Of a stretch of DNA of 32,000 nt, positions 6,459-22,489 are shown piece by piece. The stretch comes from Raphidiopsis brookii D9 (GTDB lineage: Bacteria; Cyanobacteriota; Cyanobacteriia; Cyanobacteriales; Nostocaceae): contig ACYB01000042.1 in NCBI GenBank assembly GCA_000175855.1, positions 210,001-242,000 of the forward strand, in the 5' to 3' direction. The position numbers and the translations under genes were made by a program. The notes below the pieces were generated by a model. That model made no database searches and was not told where the DNA came from. It worked only from the letters and a program-made list of their open reading frames with translations. Numbering within the stretch: the stretch's first letter is position 1; each line of letters begins with the position of its first letter.

Positions 6459-7337
6459 ATGGTAGTAGATTTCACCGCCTTACTGTTGGGGTTCGAGTTC
6501 ACCTCCCCAGGTCCCGTAGTACCTGGATTAGAATTTGGACCATTTGTTATTCGTTGGTATGGATTGCTAATTGCATCAGCCGTATTAATTGGTGTTAGTC
6601 TTGCCCAGCATCTGGCCAAACGTCGTCATTTAGATCCTGATATCATCAGTGATTTATCCGTTTGGTTGGTAGTAGGAGCTATTCCAGCTGCGAGATTATA
6701 TTATGTCCTATTCCAATGGTCAGAATATTCCCGTTCTCCTGGGAGAATTCTAGCCATTTGGCAGGGTGGTATAGCCATTCATGGAGCTATTCTTGGCGGT
6801 ATTATAGCCGCTTTAATCTTTGCCAGACTCAAAAGAATATCTTTTTGGCAATTGGCAGATTTAGTCGCCCCTTCTCTGATTTTAGGTCAAGCTATTGGAC
6901 GTTGGGGGAATTTCTTTAATTCTGAAGCTTTTGGTGATCCTACAGATTTGCCTTGGAAACTATACATTCCACCAGAGCATCGTCCTCCTGCTTTGGTAAA
7001 TTTTGAATATTTCCACCCCACTTTTCTATATGAATCCCTGTGGAATTTGATGGTATTTGCTCTATTACTAACTTTATTTTTTCGGAGTTTATCTGGCAAA
7101 CCAGAATTGAAGACCGGAACCTTATTTTTGGTTTACTGGGTAACCTATAGTATAGGAAGATTTGCTATTGAAGGTTTACGTACGGATAGTCTCATGCTAG
7201 GTTCTCTAAGAATTGCCCAATTGGTTAGTTTAACCGGAATAGTAGTGGGTTTAGCTGGTTTAGTCTGGCTTTATTTATACAAACGCTCCCTACCGGATGT
7301 AGTATCTCCCAGTTATAACCGTTATAACCACCAATAA
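6459..7337 (+). CDS. lgt: Prolipoprotein diacylglyceryl transferase
   Basis: 292-aa polytopic membrane protein with Lgt signatures ([33 protein letters not shown]). Confidence 0.93.
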
Positions 7338-7424
7338 AAAATGCCCCAGAGTGTTCTCCAGGGCTTAACCAGGGTGCATCTACCATATCTTTCTACCACT
7401 AGCAAGTGGTGAATCCGGAAAACC

Positions 7425-15442: not shown

Positions 15443-15516
<74 letters not shown>

Positions 15517-18269: not shown

Positions 18270-18524
18270 TCAGGTGGATTCACTGCTTTTTGCTGAGTTG
18301 GTAGTGATTTCAATGAGGAGAACGCATCCAGGGGGAAATTTTGTCTCTTCTACTGCGATCGCAGGCGCATCACCAGACTGAACCAGTTGATGAATGCGGG
18401 CTCGACGCACAGTTACCATAGCAAATTCTGCTGCTACAAAAAAGGCGTTAATTGTTATCAAAATTAGTATTGACAACAATTTTAATCCTATATCTGTCCA
18501 AATTAACTGGGGAAAAGTGATCAC
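18270..18524 (-). pseudogene. Truncated remnant of a DUF21/CBS (CNNM/TlyC hemolysin-family) membrane protein
   Basis: The first ~57 aa (LILITINAFFVAAEFAMVTVRRARIHQLVQSGD) match the DUF21 N-terminus of proteins that are normally 350-450 aa. The reading frame then diverges and stops at 84 aa. No CBS or CorC domain follows. Confidence 0.6.
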
Positions 18525-18619: not shown

Positions 18620-19333
18620 TTATTTTTCTACGGGAATATCAGACAGCTGTAATTTGAGTTTTTGAGCAGGGTAGTCTGTTAGAGACAAGGTTAAACTACT
18701 CACATCATTAAGTAAAGCAGTGGGGATGCTAATGTTACCCATAAATACGGACCCGTTACCTGGCAGCTCGGCAGGTAAACCTTCCGTAGTAGCAGTTAAA
18801 ACTCTGCCTCTATTATCGGTGACATCCAGAAAACTATATAAAAATCTCACAGATTCATTAGATTGATTGTGCATTTTGACCTTGAGTATGAGTTGACCAC
18901 CGGAATAACTAGCTGACTGTACGGACATATTTACACCCTCACTTTCAGCCACCACAGGAAATCCTGGCTGTGGTGGTTCTTCTGGAAGTTCTTGTGCTTT
19001 TTGTTGAGATTTATCTTTTGTGGATACTGTTTGCTCCTCTTCTTCGACCTTTTTTGTTCGATTAGTTTTAGTCTTGTTTTGTTCTATTCTTTTTTTTACC
19101 TGATTAATTATATCCTCTTCTTTCAAGAAAGATATGGGAACGGATTGCAAATTATTATTCCCACTACTAATTAACTTAGATGTGGGACGACCATCTGGTG
19201 ATGTTACTCCCTTGAGAGCAGAGCTTCCCATAGAAAAACCCAAAAAGGCACTAACCGAACCTGTCATCAGCATGAGGGCCACCAAAATTAAGGTTAGAAC
19301 CGCAGTCGAATTTGTTGTCATCATTGTCATCAC
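18620..19333 (-). CDS. Hypothetical membrane-anchored/secreted protein with a K/E-rich linker
   Basis: 237-aa ORF with an N-terminal hydrophobic helix, a charged low-complexity linker and a beta-rich C-terminal domain. No family recognised. Confidence 0.45.
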   Translation of the reverse strand: MMTMMTTNSTAVLTLILVALMLMTGSVSAFLGFSMGSSALKGVTSPDGRPTSKLISSGNNNLQSVPISFLKEEDIINQVKKRIEQNKTKTNRTKKVEEEEQTVSTKDKSQQKAQELPEEPPQPGFPVVAESEGVNMSVQSASYSGGQLILKVKMHNQSNESVRFLYSFLDVTDNRGRVLTATTEGLPAELPGNGSVFMGNISIPTALLNDVSSLTLSLTDYPAQKLKLQLSDIPVEK

Positions 19334-19999
19334 TGTCAGACCTTGTTTAATAGCGATTTCCAGCCTAAACGAAAAATTTTTTTTTTGGTTGGCGTAAAAT
19401 TCTAAAAACTATGCTATGTTAGTTTGAGTTGGTTTAAACCCCAACCAACTAGCGCCTTTGGCCGATTGGGGAGGCAACGAACTCAGTGCGACAGTCTCAA
19501 CTCCATCCATGAGGGTGAAAGTCCCTCCATCAAGTCAGATGATGACTCCAGTGTACACTTCTCTATTCTGACCCAATAGAGGGGGGAAGCAAGTACACAA
19601 ATCCAACGCCAAGAGAGTCCGCTCAAAGCAGAGGAAAGGGAGTTCATATGGCTAACGAAAGTGAACCTACGTGAGAACTACGGTCAAATACAGCAGTGAA
19701 ATGGACTGACACACTGCGAACAAAAGTTCAATGTGGCAAGTGGAGTAACCCCTATGTTGAGTGATAGGAATTCTGACCTTCCAGACCACACCGTAGAAAG
19801 TAGGAGCCTAAGTGAACACAATAATGGTTGGCGAACAAAGATTGGGAACTAACTGTCTTGTAAACCTTTATAAGGAGGCTAGGTCAAAGCCCTAAGATAG
19901 TTGGGAAGGAACTTACCTCAAGCCAAAGTCTACCTGTAATGGGTAGAATATGCCGAAAGGTAAGTGGCTACATTTGAGGTGAATCAAAGATAAAAGCCG

Positions 20000-21676
20000 A
20001 TGACTAAAGCTCAAGAAGCAGTATGGACACGTTTGGACTGGAGTGAAATCCAATACAAGGTGTCGCGGTTGCAATCCAAGATTTATCAAGCATCTCTAAC
20101 TGGAGACAAAAGTTCTGTTGTTAAATATCAGAAAATCCTAATAAATTCCTACAGCGCCAAACTATTGGCAATTAAAAAGGTCACACAGGATAACAAGGGT
20201 AAAAAAACAGCAGATGGTAAGGAATGGGTCAAACTAGCTCAGAACCTGGAACTAGACGGAAAGGCAAGTCCATTAACATGGGTAAAAGTCCCTAAGTCAA
20301 ATGGAGAGTTCGGAAATCTAGGAGTTCCCACTGGAGAGGATAAAGCTAAACAGGCGTTAGCAAGAATGGCTCTAGAACCAGAATGGGAAGCCAAATTTGA
20401 ACCCAATAGCTATGGGTTCAGACCAGGGAGAAGCTATCATGATGCCATCATCGCCATTGAGGTTCAGGTCCGTACAAGAACTAACTATGTCCTAAGTGTG
20501 GATATGGGCGGTTGCTTTGACAAAATAAAACATGAGGCAATAATTCAAAGGTGTAACACCTTCCCCATAATGGAGCGTCAAATCATAGCATGGCTGAAAA
20601 GCGGAGTAATGATAGGCGACGTATTCTATCCAACGGAAAGGGGTGTGCCGGTAGGAGGGGTTATTTCGCCCCTCTTAGTAAATATTGCACTACACGGACT
20701 GGAAACTCACATCTCTCAGAAATTGCCTAGTGCCAATCAGGCTCAAGGTAAGCTCGGGGGACTGGTGAGATATGCCCATGACTTCCTGGTACTACACTGG
20801 GAAGAAGAAACCATCAAAGCAGCAAAGACTGAAGTGGAGACCTGGTTGGGAGAAATAGGGTTAAACCTAAATCAACAGAAGGTCAGGATGTGCCACACCA
20901 TGGAGGAATACAACGGAGAAAAGCCGGGACTAGACTTTCTTGGATTTAATATCAGGACCTATAAGATAGGCAAGTATAAATCCAGTGAAAAAGTCAATGG
21001 CGAATTTCCGGGGATGTTAACCAAAGTCAAACCATCGGAGAGGTCCGTGGAAAGATTTGTGAATGACATCAAAGAAACTCTAAATCAAGGGCACGACAAA
21101 AACCCCGCGATAATGATCAAGCAATTGAGCTGGATAATCAGAAGCTGGGCAAACTACTTCAAGTCGGGTAGCCACTCCCGGGAAACTTTTGGTGAATTAC
21201 AAAGCCACAGGCTAGATAAAGTGTATCTAAACTGGGGAAGGAAAAGATTTGCCAAGTATGGTCTTGGGTACATACGCAAGAAGATATTCCACGAAACACC
21301 AAGAAAGACTAGTACTTTCGGGTGGAAGGAAGGAAACACTCTCTTCACAGTGCCCACATTATACGAGTTCCCATACGCCCAATATATCAAAGTAGAGGGA
21401 ATAAGAAGCCCCTATGACGGAGATTGGGTATACTGGACGAAAAGAATGGCTGACCACCCGGAAACACCTCAAGACATCAAGTTCGGAATAGCACAACAGA
21501 AAGGTAAGTGCTACTTATGTGGTCAAAACCTAACTGTTGAGGACTCCCTTAAAATCCATTATATAGGCGGAAATAAAAACAACAACAGAAAAACAAAGGC
21601 AGTAGTACATAATCACTGTCATGAAAGTCACCAAAGGATGACGGTATCTCAAACGGAGATATTGGGTGTAGCTTGA
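20000..21676 (+). CDS. Group II intron-encoded protein (RT/maturase/HNH) with a degenerate RT active site
   Basis: RT blocks are present: SYGFRPGRSYHDAI, SVDMGGCFDKIKHE, GVPVGGVISPLLVNIAL, RYAHDFLVL, LDFLGF. The X/maturase region is LSWIIRSWANYF. The C-terminal Cys/His HNH-like region is CYLCGQ...HNHCHESH. Confidence 0.9.
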   Translation: MTKAQEAVWTRLDWSEIQYKVSRLQSKIYQASLTGDKSSVVKYQKILINSYSAKLLAIKKVTQDNKGKKTADGKEWVKLAQNLELDGKASPLTWVKVPKSNGEFGNLGVPTGEDKAKQALARMALEPEWEAKFEPNSYGFRPGRSYHDAIIAIEVQVRTRTNYVLSVDMGGCFDKIKHEAIIQRCNTFPIMERQIIAWLKSGVMIGDVFYPTERGVPVGGVISPLLVNIALHGLETHISQKLPSANQAQGKLGGLVRYAHDFLVLHWEEETIKAAKTEVETWLGEIGLNLNQQKVRMCHTMEEYNGEKPGLDFLGFNIRTYKIGKYKSSEKVNGEFPGMLTKVKPSERSVERFVNDIKETLNQGHDKNPAIMIKQLSWIIRSWANYFKSGSHSRETFGELQSHRLDKVYLNWGRKRFAKYGLGYIRKKIFHETPRKTSTFGWKEGNTLFTVPTLYEFPYAQYIKVEGIRSPYDGDWVYWTKRMADHPETPQDIKFGIAQQKGKCYLCGQNLTVEDSLKIHYIGGNKNNNRKTKAVVHNHCHESHQRMTVSQTEILGVA

Positions 21677-21709
21677 AGCCGTGTGCGGTGAAAGTCGCAA
21701 GCACGGTTT
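21676..21709 (+). ncRNA. Group II intron domain V (catalytic hairpin)
   Basis: AAGCCGTGTGCGGT-GAAA-GTCGCAAGCACGGTTT has the AGC triad, a GAAA tetraloop and a 2-nt AA bulge, close to the DV consensus. Confidence 0.85.
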
Positions 21710-21808
21710 TGCAGCCGAGTTATCCGAGTAATTGGGTAGTTTAGGTAACTAATTCGTCTTCAGGCTGGTTCGATTCCAGCAGGGCGCACTTAACTGCAAC
21801 ACAATTAA

Positions 21809-22489
21809 CTACATACCTTGTTGTTTAACTGGGTCCTCTAGACCCAACTCATGGAAAGCTGCCCAGCGCAACTGACAGGAGTCGCATACACCACAGGGTT
21901 GTTGGTCACCACTATAACAAGACCAGGTTAATTCCCAGGGTACACCTAAAAGGTTACCCAACTGGATAATTTGGCTTTTAGTTAAATTAATCAGGGGTGC
22001 GACAATGTCAATCCTCTTTCCTTCCCGACCCTGTTTAGTTCCTAAACGGAAAACCTCCTGCATGGCATGGATATAATCAGGACGACAGTCAGGATAGCCA
22101 GAATAATCTAAAGCGTTAACACCTATGTATACCCGTTCAGCCCTAATTGCTTCAGCATAGGCGAGAGCAAAGCTCAAAAAAATGGTATTCCGAGCAGGGA
22201 CATAGGTGATGGGAATGGACCCCGACATTTGGTCTAGGGGACGATTCTGAGGAACAGGGATGGAATTATCAGTTAAAGCTGATCCCCCCCAAGAACGTAA
22301 ATCAAAGGTGACCAGTTGATGTTCAACCACTTCTAGAGATTGGGCGATAGATATAGCTGATTGTAACTCTCGTCGATGTCGCTGGTGATAATCAAAAGAA
22401 ATAACATAGCATTCATAACCGTCTGCACGAGCCTGATATAAGACTGTAGACGAATCCAAACCTCCGGACAAAAGAATTACAGCTTTCAT
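21809..22489 (-). CDS. queC: 7-cyano-7-deazaguanine synthase
   Basis: MKAVILLSGGLDSST PP-loop and a C-terminal Cys cluster (CYSGDQQPCGVCDSC). The track ORF extends to 22657, but the conserved N-terminus begins at the ATG at 22489. Confidence 0.92.
   Translation of the reverse strand: MKAVILLSGGLDSSTVLYQARADGYECYVISFDYHQRHRRELQSAISIAQSLEVVEHQLVTFDLRSWGGSALTDNSIPVPQNRPLDQMSGSIPITYVPARNTIFLSFALAYAEAIRAERVYIGVNALDYSGYPDCRPDYIHAMQEVFRLGTKQGREGKRIDIVAPLINLTKSQIIQLGNLLGVPWELTWSCYSGDQQPCGVCDSCQLRWAAFHELGLEDPVKQQGM

Follow-up and report, generated by a model that had tools for sequence, protein, structure and literature searches.

How can a tRNA serve in decoding when its gene is broken within the anticodon by a group II intron of more than 2 kb, and what becomes of an intron that has settled at such a site? 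Both questions are raised by a tRNA(CAU) gene of the cyanobacterium Raphidiopsis brookii D9, which lies on a stretch of 32,000 nucleotides (contig ACYB01000042.1, positions 210,001 to 242,000 of the forward strand; this whole stretch is called the window here, and its own numbering is used throughout). An earlier note on this DNA had pointed to the intron and had suggested that its host gene encodes tRNA-Ile2, the lysidine-dependent decoder of AUA codons. Having followed up this suggestion, we consider it very probable that D9 carries, at the syntenic tRNA-Ile2 locus, a tRNA-Ile2 gene in which a group II intron separates A35 from U36, the intron being immobile, kept by vertical descent and obliged to splice for AUA to be decoded.

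The interrupted gene and its ribozyme

Using ARAGORN with introns allowed on positions 19300-21950, we found a group II intron of 2264 nt that separates anticodon nucleotides 35 and 36 of the tRNA(CAU) gene. The intron-mode call, a tRNA(cat), spans 19452-21789, its last base lying one past the discriminator. Joining the two exons (19452-19485 and 21750-21788, 34 and 39 nt, both on the + strand) yields a 73-nt cloverleaf. Exon 1, delimited by ARAGORN and by the alleles of other Nostocaceae, comprises the 5' strand of the acceptor stem, the D arm, the 5' strand of the anticodon stem and C32 to A35, ending in CUCA. Exon 2 supplies U36, A37, A38, the 3' strand of the anticodon stem, the variable loop, the T arm and the 3' acceptor strand, and it ends at the discriminator A, CCA not being encoded. 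The exon/intron borders, CTCA|GTGCG...GTAAC|TAATTCG, are unambiguous, as no base is repeated at either junction, and the predicted spliced junction reads ...GAACUCA|UAAUUCG..., that is, ...GGCAACGAACUCA|UAAUUCGUC....

The same locus is uninterrupted in related genomes. A BLAST comparison showed that the end of exon 1 directly adjoins the start of exon 2 at the syntenic locus of relatives, and this exact empty site fixes the junction at CA|U. The joined exons are identical at 73 of 73 positions to the uninterrupted gene of Nostoc spp. and Dolichospermum (L016, L024, L026, L047, L060, L078, L079, L111; L-numbers denote loci or contigs and P-numbers homologous proteins) and of Sphaerospermopsis aphanizomenoides (L022), all of them intron-less alleles within the Nostocaceae. 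The locus in these relatives has the same upstream gene of ~237 amino acids, with which the single matching locus found in each related genome sampled is syntenic. Against the Rfam tRNA model RF00005 (gathering score 29), the uninterrupted allele of L016, identical to the joined exons, scored 51.0 bits. This match, obtained on L016 3300-3650, appears with permissive filters, while a default-filter scan at the gathering threshold returned none, which we attribute to an effect of the filters and not to a failing tRNA. With its D stem of 3 bp and its long D loop, tRNA-Ile2 may tend to escape filtered scans. Without its intron option, ARAGORN called only the initiator tRNA in the whole window.

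The intron itself (19486..21749, + strand) is delimited by Rfam, ARAGORN and homologues at the same site. Its termini, GTGCG at 19486-19490 and AAC at 21747-21749, agree with the GUGYG and AY ends of group II introns, and homologous introns begin with GTGCG or GTACG. The Rfam model for domains V and VI, Intron_gpII RF00029 (gathering score 40), matches 21674-21769 with 47.5 bits. In an alignment of 10-12 homologous introns, domain V (21676..21709, + strand) displays the AGC triad, a 2-nt bulge and a GAAA loop, with 14 pairs, 100% of them paired and 5 compensatory. Domain VI (21714..21746, + strand), as folded with RNAfold and alifold, comprises 14 pairs (99.3% paired, 7 compensatory) and a bulged A. 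This putative branch point, A21743, is the seventh nucleotide from the 3' end of the intron, and its column is invariant in 10 homologues. Taken together, the 28 pairs of both domains are paired in 99.6% of cells across these 10 homologues, and 12 of them show changes on both sides; none of 500 shuffles reached such values, and all slid registers were only 26-44% paired.

Recognition of the 5' exon is likewise visible in the alignment. A domain I hairpin at 19751..19768 (+ strand; alignment and RNAalifold), in which five of five stem pairs are compensatory, presents in its loop the exon-binding site EBS1, UGAGU (19758-19762, +). This is complementary to the intron-binding site IBS1, ACUCA (19481-19485, +), which forms the final 5 nt of exon 1, and the loop sequence UGAG is invariant in all aligned homologues. 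The two halves of an 11-nt-type receptor, UAUGG and CCUAAG, can be seen by eye, CCUAAG being present in almost all copies. The sequence TGTTG was considered as a candidate for EBS2 and rejected, since it overlaps EBS1. No class model for domains 1-4 matched in an Rfam E-value scan of the intron, and the nearest protein relatives suggest a structural subclass that would be IIB or chloroplast-like.

The earlier note had proposed that excision of 19486-21749 gives a 73-nt tRNA(CAU), that the break falls between nucleotides 35 and 36, and that domain V, domain VI and the bulged A21743 are intact. All its coordinates proved correct. The position of the break is borne out by ARAGORN, the junction in relatives and Rfam, and the integrity of the splicing elements by Rfam together with the compensatory changes, to which the EBS1/IBS1 pairing in a covarying hairpin can now be added.

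Identity of the split tRNA

The split gene is best read as the probable tRNA-Ile2, in which C34 would be modified to lysidine. The acceptor stem is informative in this respect. C3-G70 is usual in tRNA-Met and tRNA-fMet, while G3, A3, C70 or T70 mark tRNA-Ile(CAT), in which C4-G69 and C5-G68 are also frequent (Silva et al. 2006, PMC1635315). The tRNA of the window has G3-C70, C4-G69 and C5-G68, all of which are discriminators of Ile(CAT). In other orders the gene occurs with variant acceptor stems, whose third pair is A3-U70, G3-C70 or U3-A70, and none has C3-G70. Furthermore, the unusual D arm (UGGCYGA..GGUU.A.GC) and the T arm are the same as in the published primers for Arabidopsis plastid tRNA-Ile-CAU (PMC9540123).

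A second line of support comes from an Rfam family. The consensus of RF04354 ('Plastid-ycf2 5'UTR RNA') is the reverse complement of plastid trnI-CAU, and this antisense orientation explains why cyanobacterial tRNA-Ile2 genes are picked up on the opposite strand. The uninterrupted allele matches the model end to end on the minus strand (L016 3437-3510; 44.6 bits, E=1e-8), whereas the initiator tRNA of the window, used as a control, reached 14 bits. The model also matches the window at 21711-21789 (-). Both the discriminators and the RF04354 scores thus favour the assignment to tRNA-Ile2 made in the earlier note. The window also holds, at 15443-15516 (+) and 4 kb upstream of the split tRNA, an uninterrupted tRNA(CAU) of the initiator type, its anticodon stem being GGG/CCC. 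In some cyanobacteria the initiator tRNA gene contains a group I intron.

The alternative that survives best is that the interrupted gene encodes elongator tRNA-Met, which would make it the direct counterpart of the intron-bearing trnMe of florideophyte plastids. ARAGORN labels every CAU tRNA as Met, the distinction between Met and Ile(CAU) tRNAs is hardest in cyanobacteria (Silva et al., PMC1635315), and a group II intron with an RT/maturase open reading frame (ORF; RT, reverse transcriptase) does reside in trnMe of red-algal plastids (PMC3607583). Nevertheless, we regard this alternative as improbable: the lack of C3-G70 among all acceptor variants, the C4-G69 and C5-G68 pairs of the window tRNA, the match of the allele to the antisense trnI-CAU model and the agreement of D and T arms with the Arabidopsis primers all argue against it, and the red-algal intron sits after position 36, not after 35 (PMC3607583).

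The intron-encoded protein and its family

The intron encodes a protein of 558 amino acids (20000..21676, + strand; EFA72127.1, 'hypothetical protein CRD_02650') with RT, X/maturase and D domains and a degenerate endonuclease (En) domain. Pfam recognised RVT_N, RVT_1 (E=2.8e-32) and GIIM (PF08388, E=1.5e-7) in this ORF and returned no HNH match. Several catalytic motifs are damaged. The RT5 motif reads YAHD in place of YADD (20771-20782, +), the first catalytic Asp being replaced by His; TAGVDG of RT1 has lost part of its residues, PVG stands in place of PQG, and HYIGGN is seen where the HNH motif of relatives reads HHIDGN. The window protein shares these RT lesions with P0001-P0005, which are all from Raphidiopsis/Cylindrospermopsis and 86-96% identical; HH is changed to HY or YY in this group. 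Being shared in this way, the lesions are older than the divergence of these strains. YADD is kept in all six aligned outgroup proteins, which belong to introns outside the tRNA clade, whereas within this clade it has been damaged many times and differently (YAHD, YAED, YAND/YANE, YADK, YADN, YGDN, YGND, YADG and FGAD).

In spite of these lesions, the ratio of nonsynonymous to synonymous substitution rates (dN/dS) is 0.12 between the window and L001 and 0.30 between the window and L137, which indicates that the ORF is still under purifying selection. The window protein and P0005 are least alike in RT1-7 (80% identity, compared with 90% in X, 93% in D and 97% in the N-terminus), while RT1-7 ranks first or close to first in conservation where both proteins of a pair have intact RT motifs. 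Records of the exact D9 protein come from one D9 contig. Retention of maturase function with loss of mobility, a MatK-type, maturase-only state, would be the simplest reading of this pattern. As the catalytic residues of RT and HNH are gone, the intron-encoded protein is probably a splicing maturase only, and the term mobile, judged by its motifs, would no longer apply to the D9 copy.

We propose that the precursor would be transcribed as a single RNA, in which EBS1 of the ribozyme (UGAGU) would pair with the exon end ACUCA. The bulged A21743 would then attack the 5' splice site, a lariat would be freed and the exons ligated, restoring the anticodon loop CUCAUAA. TilS, isoleucyl-tRNA synthetase and the end-processing enzymes would act on the tRNA only after splicing. 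In the Raphidiopsis/Cylindrospermopsis lineage, the protein would serve solely as a splicing maturase. In the long ORFs of the window, 19.5 of every 1000 codons are AUA. AUA is the Ile codon that the maturase ORF uses most, and it occurs there 16 times. With AUA this common, the tRNA would be needed by the cell and also by its own maturase, whose synthesis depends on the tRNA that it presumably helps to mature. We infer that the split gene is the only tRNA-Ile2 copy of D9.

A different account would have a selfish intron disrupt a tRNA gene that no longer functions, AUA being decoded by a gene elsewhere in the genome. It draws on the fact that the evidence for splicing comes from the sequence of the window, and the decayed catalytic motifs of the protein could be read as general decay. 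However, the exons are 100% identical to intact, functional Nostocaceae alleles, whereas the flanking genes are 65-80% identical to other Nostocaceae and the adjacent intergenic and coding DNA has diverged to ~65-75% identity. Over the 514 nt at its 5' end, the ribozyme shows 96-97% identity between the window, L137 and L001, against a synonymous divergence (dS) of 1.1 for the ORF between window and L001. Domain V, domain VI and the EBS1 hairpin are intact and covarying, the dN/dS of the ORF lies at 0.12-0.30, and each sampled relative has just this matching locus, with its syntenic upstream gene. The pseudogene reading was therefore rejected on exon identity, ribozyme conservation, covariation and dN/dS, and we give the disrupted-gene account as a whole even less credence than the elongator tRNA.

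Several points weigh against an obligatorily spliced tRNA-Ile2 with a maturase-only protein. Splicing in vivo and lariat formation are predicted from sequence features, and an ungapped search of exon positions -6 to -16 against domain I in 10 homologues revealed no positionally conserved EBS2/IBS2 partner; exon positions -8 and -9 differ between the window and L001 without a matching change in the intron. The presumed loss of RT activity is deduced from motifs. The score of the protein against TIGR04416 ('group II intron RT/maturase'), 242 bits with a cutoff of 300, is consistent with decay and also marks the protein as atypical. The preference for Ile2 over elongator Met draws on the published discriminators and on the similarity to plastid trnI-CAU; as for an elongator tRNA-Met control, only the window initiator turned up among the CAU tRNAs of the 131 fetched loci. 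Finally, elsewhere in its genome D9 may have another intact gene for tRNA-Ile2, or one for tRNA-Ile(UAU).

The intron is part of a larger family. A scan of species-representative genomes, with one pattern covering interrupted and uninterrupted alleles, returned at least 120 loci, all cyanobacterial where a taxon is named. Among the matches listed, 118 of 120 were uninterrupted, and the two interrupted ones came from Tychonema bourrellyi FEM_GT703 and an uncultured cyanobacterium. A junction-specific scan of metagenome contigs gave 6 matches. Every homologous intron that was placed in its context, with protein identities down to ~50%, lies at the same 35/36 site (L001, L003/L004, L005-L007, L008, L009/L010, L045, L115, L133, L137, L140 and L141). 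The corresponding protein clade, P0001-P0041, is 45-96% identical, almost all members being without a Pfam HNH call. Below it, identity steps down to ~42%, to typical HNH-bearing cyanobacterial intron proteins, and P0042 (43%), the relative examined next, lies outside any tRNA.

Closest to the window protein among the relatives placed in context is P0004 (89% identical), from a metagenome contig (L137) whose DNA is 94.5% identical to the window, followed by P0006 (73%) on the cyanophage-like contig L001. P0007 (L140, 70%) and P0010 (L141, 68%) have a chromosomal context. P0014 (L003-L004, and L133; 61%) belongs to Crocosphaera, P0023 (L009-L010, 54%) and P0034 (L008, 50%) come from metagenome contigs, and P0026 (L005-L007 and L045, 52%) represents a cluster including Phormidium pseudopriestleyi and Oscillatoria sp., the Phormidium-like Oscillatoriales among the hosts; L115, with a partial ORF, comes from Tychonema bourrellyi. 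Judged by these sequences, the family is taxonomically widespread, covering several cyanobacterial orders, but rare. Relationships among the introns conflict with the type of host tRNA: L115, with a CGGCAGT host, groups with L009, with a GGGCGGT host (ribozymes 82% identical), and L005 (CGGCAGT host) groups with L008 (GGGCGGT host; 73%). This conflict makes at least some horizontal movement of the family likely.

The phage-like copy bears directly on this movement. On the 77.8-kb contig L001/L139 (JGI 3300042359, Ga0453949_0000014), the tRNA is surrounded by genes for RIIA, a MazG-like pyrophosphatase, a dNMP kinase, a tail-fibre/virion protein and NblA, a cyanophage-like set by which the intron is probably present in a cyanophage. 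The contig has a divergent tRNA(CAU) of its own, whose acceptor reads GCTCCTT and whose D and T arms are of the Nostocaceae type, and this tRNA is split at 35/36. This split tRNA with its intron (L001 2450-4843) is the closest non-Raphidiopsis relative of the window intron. Its protein, P0006, keeps all RT and HNH motifs, and relatives with intact RT and En motifs, the cyanophage-like copy included, probably still home. A search of P0006 against known phages and IMG/VR found no close relative, the best matches being 35% and 44% identical.

Ribozyme and ORF of the phage-like copy differ in their history, as the former is nearest to the window and the latter to L141. The L001 ribozyme is 96.7% identical to that of the window and 77.8% to that of L141, and both its parts, corresponding to 19486-19999 and 21629-21749, are ~97% identical between window and L001. 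The L001 ORF, on the other hand, is 81% identical to L141 at the amino acid level with a dS of 0.86, compared with 76% and a dS of 1.11 to the window. Recombination or gene conversion between phage and host copies is suspected as a candidate explanation. In IMG/VR, 52 viral contigs (L142-L193) carry uninterrupted tRNA-Ile2-type genes with the identical target sequence, all without the intron, and most of these genes have a non-host acceptor stem (GGGTTGA, 42 contigs). The homing site is thus common on phages, and phage-encoded AUA decoders of the tRNA-Ile2 type seem to be common too. These genes offer a concrete route by which the intron could spread between hosts.

That the window copy is a still-active retroelement which arrived recently by retrohoming is the least credible account, since the points in its favour, namely relatives with intact YADD and HNH (the phage-borne P0006 among them), the conflicts between intron relationships and host tRNA type (L115-L009, L005-L008) and the presence of the intron in ~2% of species among the matches listed, argue for horizontal spread of the family, while the window copy itself has the Asp-to-His change in YADD, the partly deleted RT1, PVG and the His-to-Tyr change in HNH, lesions common to all Raphidiopsis/Cylindrospermopsis proteins at 86-96% identity, and its exact protein is found on one D9 contig only. 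For D9 we therefore retain an immobile intron kept by descent. The lineage to which the intron belongs targets a single site, namely the DNA of the highly conserved anticodon stem-loop in the tRNA-Ile2 genes of cyanobacteria and cyanophages. For the lineage as a whole, we tentatively put forward a broader scheme, to which we grant a little less than an even chance. Specialised on 35/36 of tRNA-Ile2(CAU) genes, the lineage would move between cyanophage and chromosomal copies and would repeatedly lose RT and En after settling, persisting as a maturase-dependent, obligatorily spliced intron.

The surroundings of the split gene show some further features. R. brookii D9 has been described as a reduced-genome relative of Cylindrospermopsis. 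Of a CNNM/CorC-type gene, which normally lies upstream of the tRNA locus, only an N-terminal fragment of 84 amino acids is present at 18270-18524 (-). The related contig L137 (10566-11722) has ~1.1 kb extra at the breakpoint corresponding to window 18314/18348, so that D9 appears to carry a deletion there. NsiR1, the nitrogen stress-induced small RNA of heterocystous cyanobacteria, was matched at 7335-7385 (-) with 51.4 bits, a further sign of the Nostocales. A scan of 19250-22000 for promoters and terminators gave nothing upstream of the tRNA, and the match counts were near shuffled expectation.

Comparison with known systems

Two reviews name group I introns as the only kind in the tRNA genes of bacteria (PMC4033280, PMC13578239), which is consistent with the view of the earlier note that a group II intron in a bacterial tRNA is unusual. 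Its rarity fits the literature, but it is not a one-off, as there is a tRNA-Ile2-specific family in several orders and on a phage-like contig. This family is previously unremarked: outside subscription journals, we found no published bacterial report and no paper that connects group II introns with tRNA genes, be it in Cylindrospermopsis, Raphidiopsis, Crocosphaera or elsewhere among bacteria, and the genome papers of D9 and C. raciborskii do not mention introns. An arrangement that reviews describe as a feature of organelles is hence found in free-living cyanobacteria too, and a cyanophage probably has it as well. Since default tRNA finding misses the split gene and the protein is deposited as a 'hypothetical protein', affected genomes would appear to be without an AUA decoder.

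Group I introns occur in the anticodon loops of bacterial tRNA genes and are patchily distributed among cyanobacteria (PMC4033280). Those of cyanobacterial tRNA-Leu(UAA) and tRNA-fMet and of Azoarcus tRNA-Ile are self-splicing, as is predicted for the D9 intron, and resemble it in their location, but they differ from it in ribozyme class and chemistry, form no lariat, are without an RT/maturase and are much shorter. The tRNA-Leu intron splits the anticodon at 34/35, and the Azoarcus host is a CAU tRNA-Ile.

The mobile cyanobacterial introns of the RT-X-D-HNH type (Dactylococcopsis, Chamaesiphon, Microcoleus; P0042-P0120) are the closest outside the clade. At ~40-44% identity, their proteins have the same domain order and RVT_N, and they keep YADD and a recognised HNH domain, which the D9 protein does not. 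One mobile copy examined in its context adjoins a second intron ORF, outside a tRNA.

In plastids, the introns of trnK, trnV, trnI-GAU, trnA and trnG lie in other tRNAs than trnI-CAU. Among plastid tRNA group II introns we did not meet the same host tRNA and position as in D9, and in the literature searched trnI-CAU is not named among the intron-bearing plastid tRNAs. Compared by description, the nearest analogue would be the intron of the florideophyte plastid trnMe(CAU), a group II intron with an RT/maturase ORF at position 36/37 (Janouskovec et al. 2013, PMC3607583). It shares with the D9 intron the GTGYG 5' end, domains V and VI, the RT/maturase ORF, the anticodon loop of a CAU tRNA as its site and stable retention. 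Unlike that of D9, it is plastid-borne, its host is elongator tRNA-Met and it follows the third anticodon base. The relevance to the origin of plastid tRNA introns that the earlier note had suggested thus receives no direct support, as trnI-CAU is not among the named hosts and the trnMe intron differs in both tRNA and position (36/37).

The likeness to matK/trnK would be a functional one. In the plastids of streptophytes, trnK(UUU) needs group II splicing, and MatK, which is without RT function and keeps domain X, depends for its translation on the tRNA that it helps to mature. The D9 ORF, with its AUA codons read by its own host tRNA, parallels this, and the dependence between maturase and tRNA-Ile2 constitutes a testable loop. 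MatK works on several introns and retains few of the RT motifs. The D9 protein, by contrast, can still be recognised by its RT fold, its decay is of recent date and confined to its lineage, and it has relatives in which RT is intact. The transition from retroelement to maturase has so far been inferred mainly from organelles. A family with intact and independently damaged RT motifs provides a natural series for the passage from a retroelement to a host-dependent maturase, and, if the tentative scheme for the lineage is true, it would represent a counterpart of the matK/trnK state of plastids in free-living bacteria, in which several degrees of decay can be seen.

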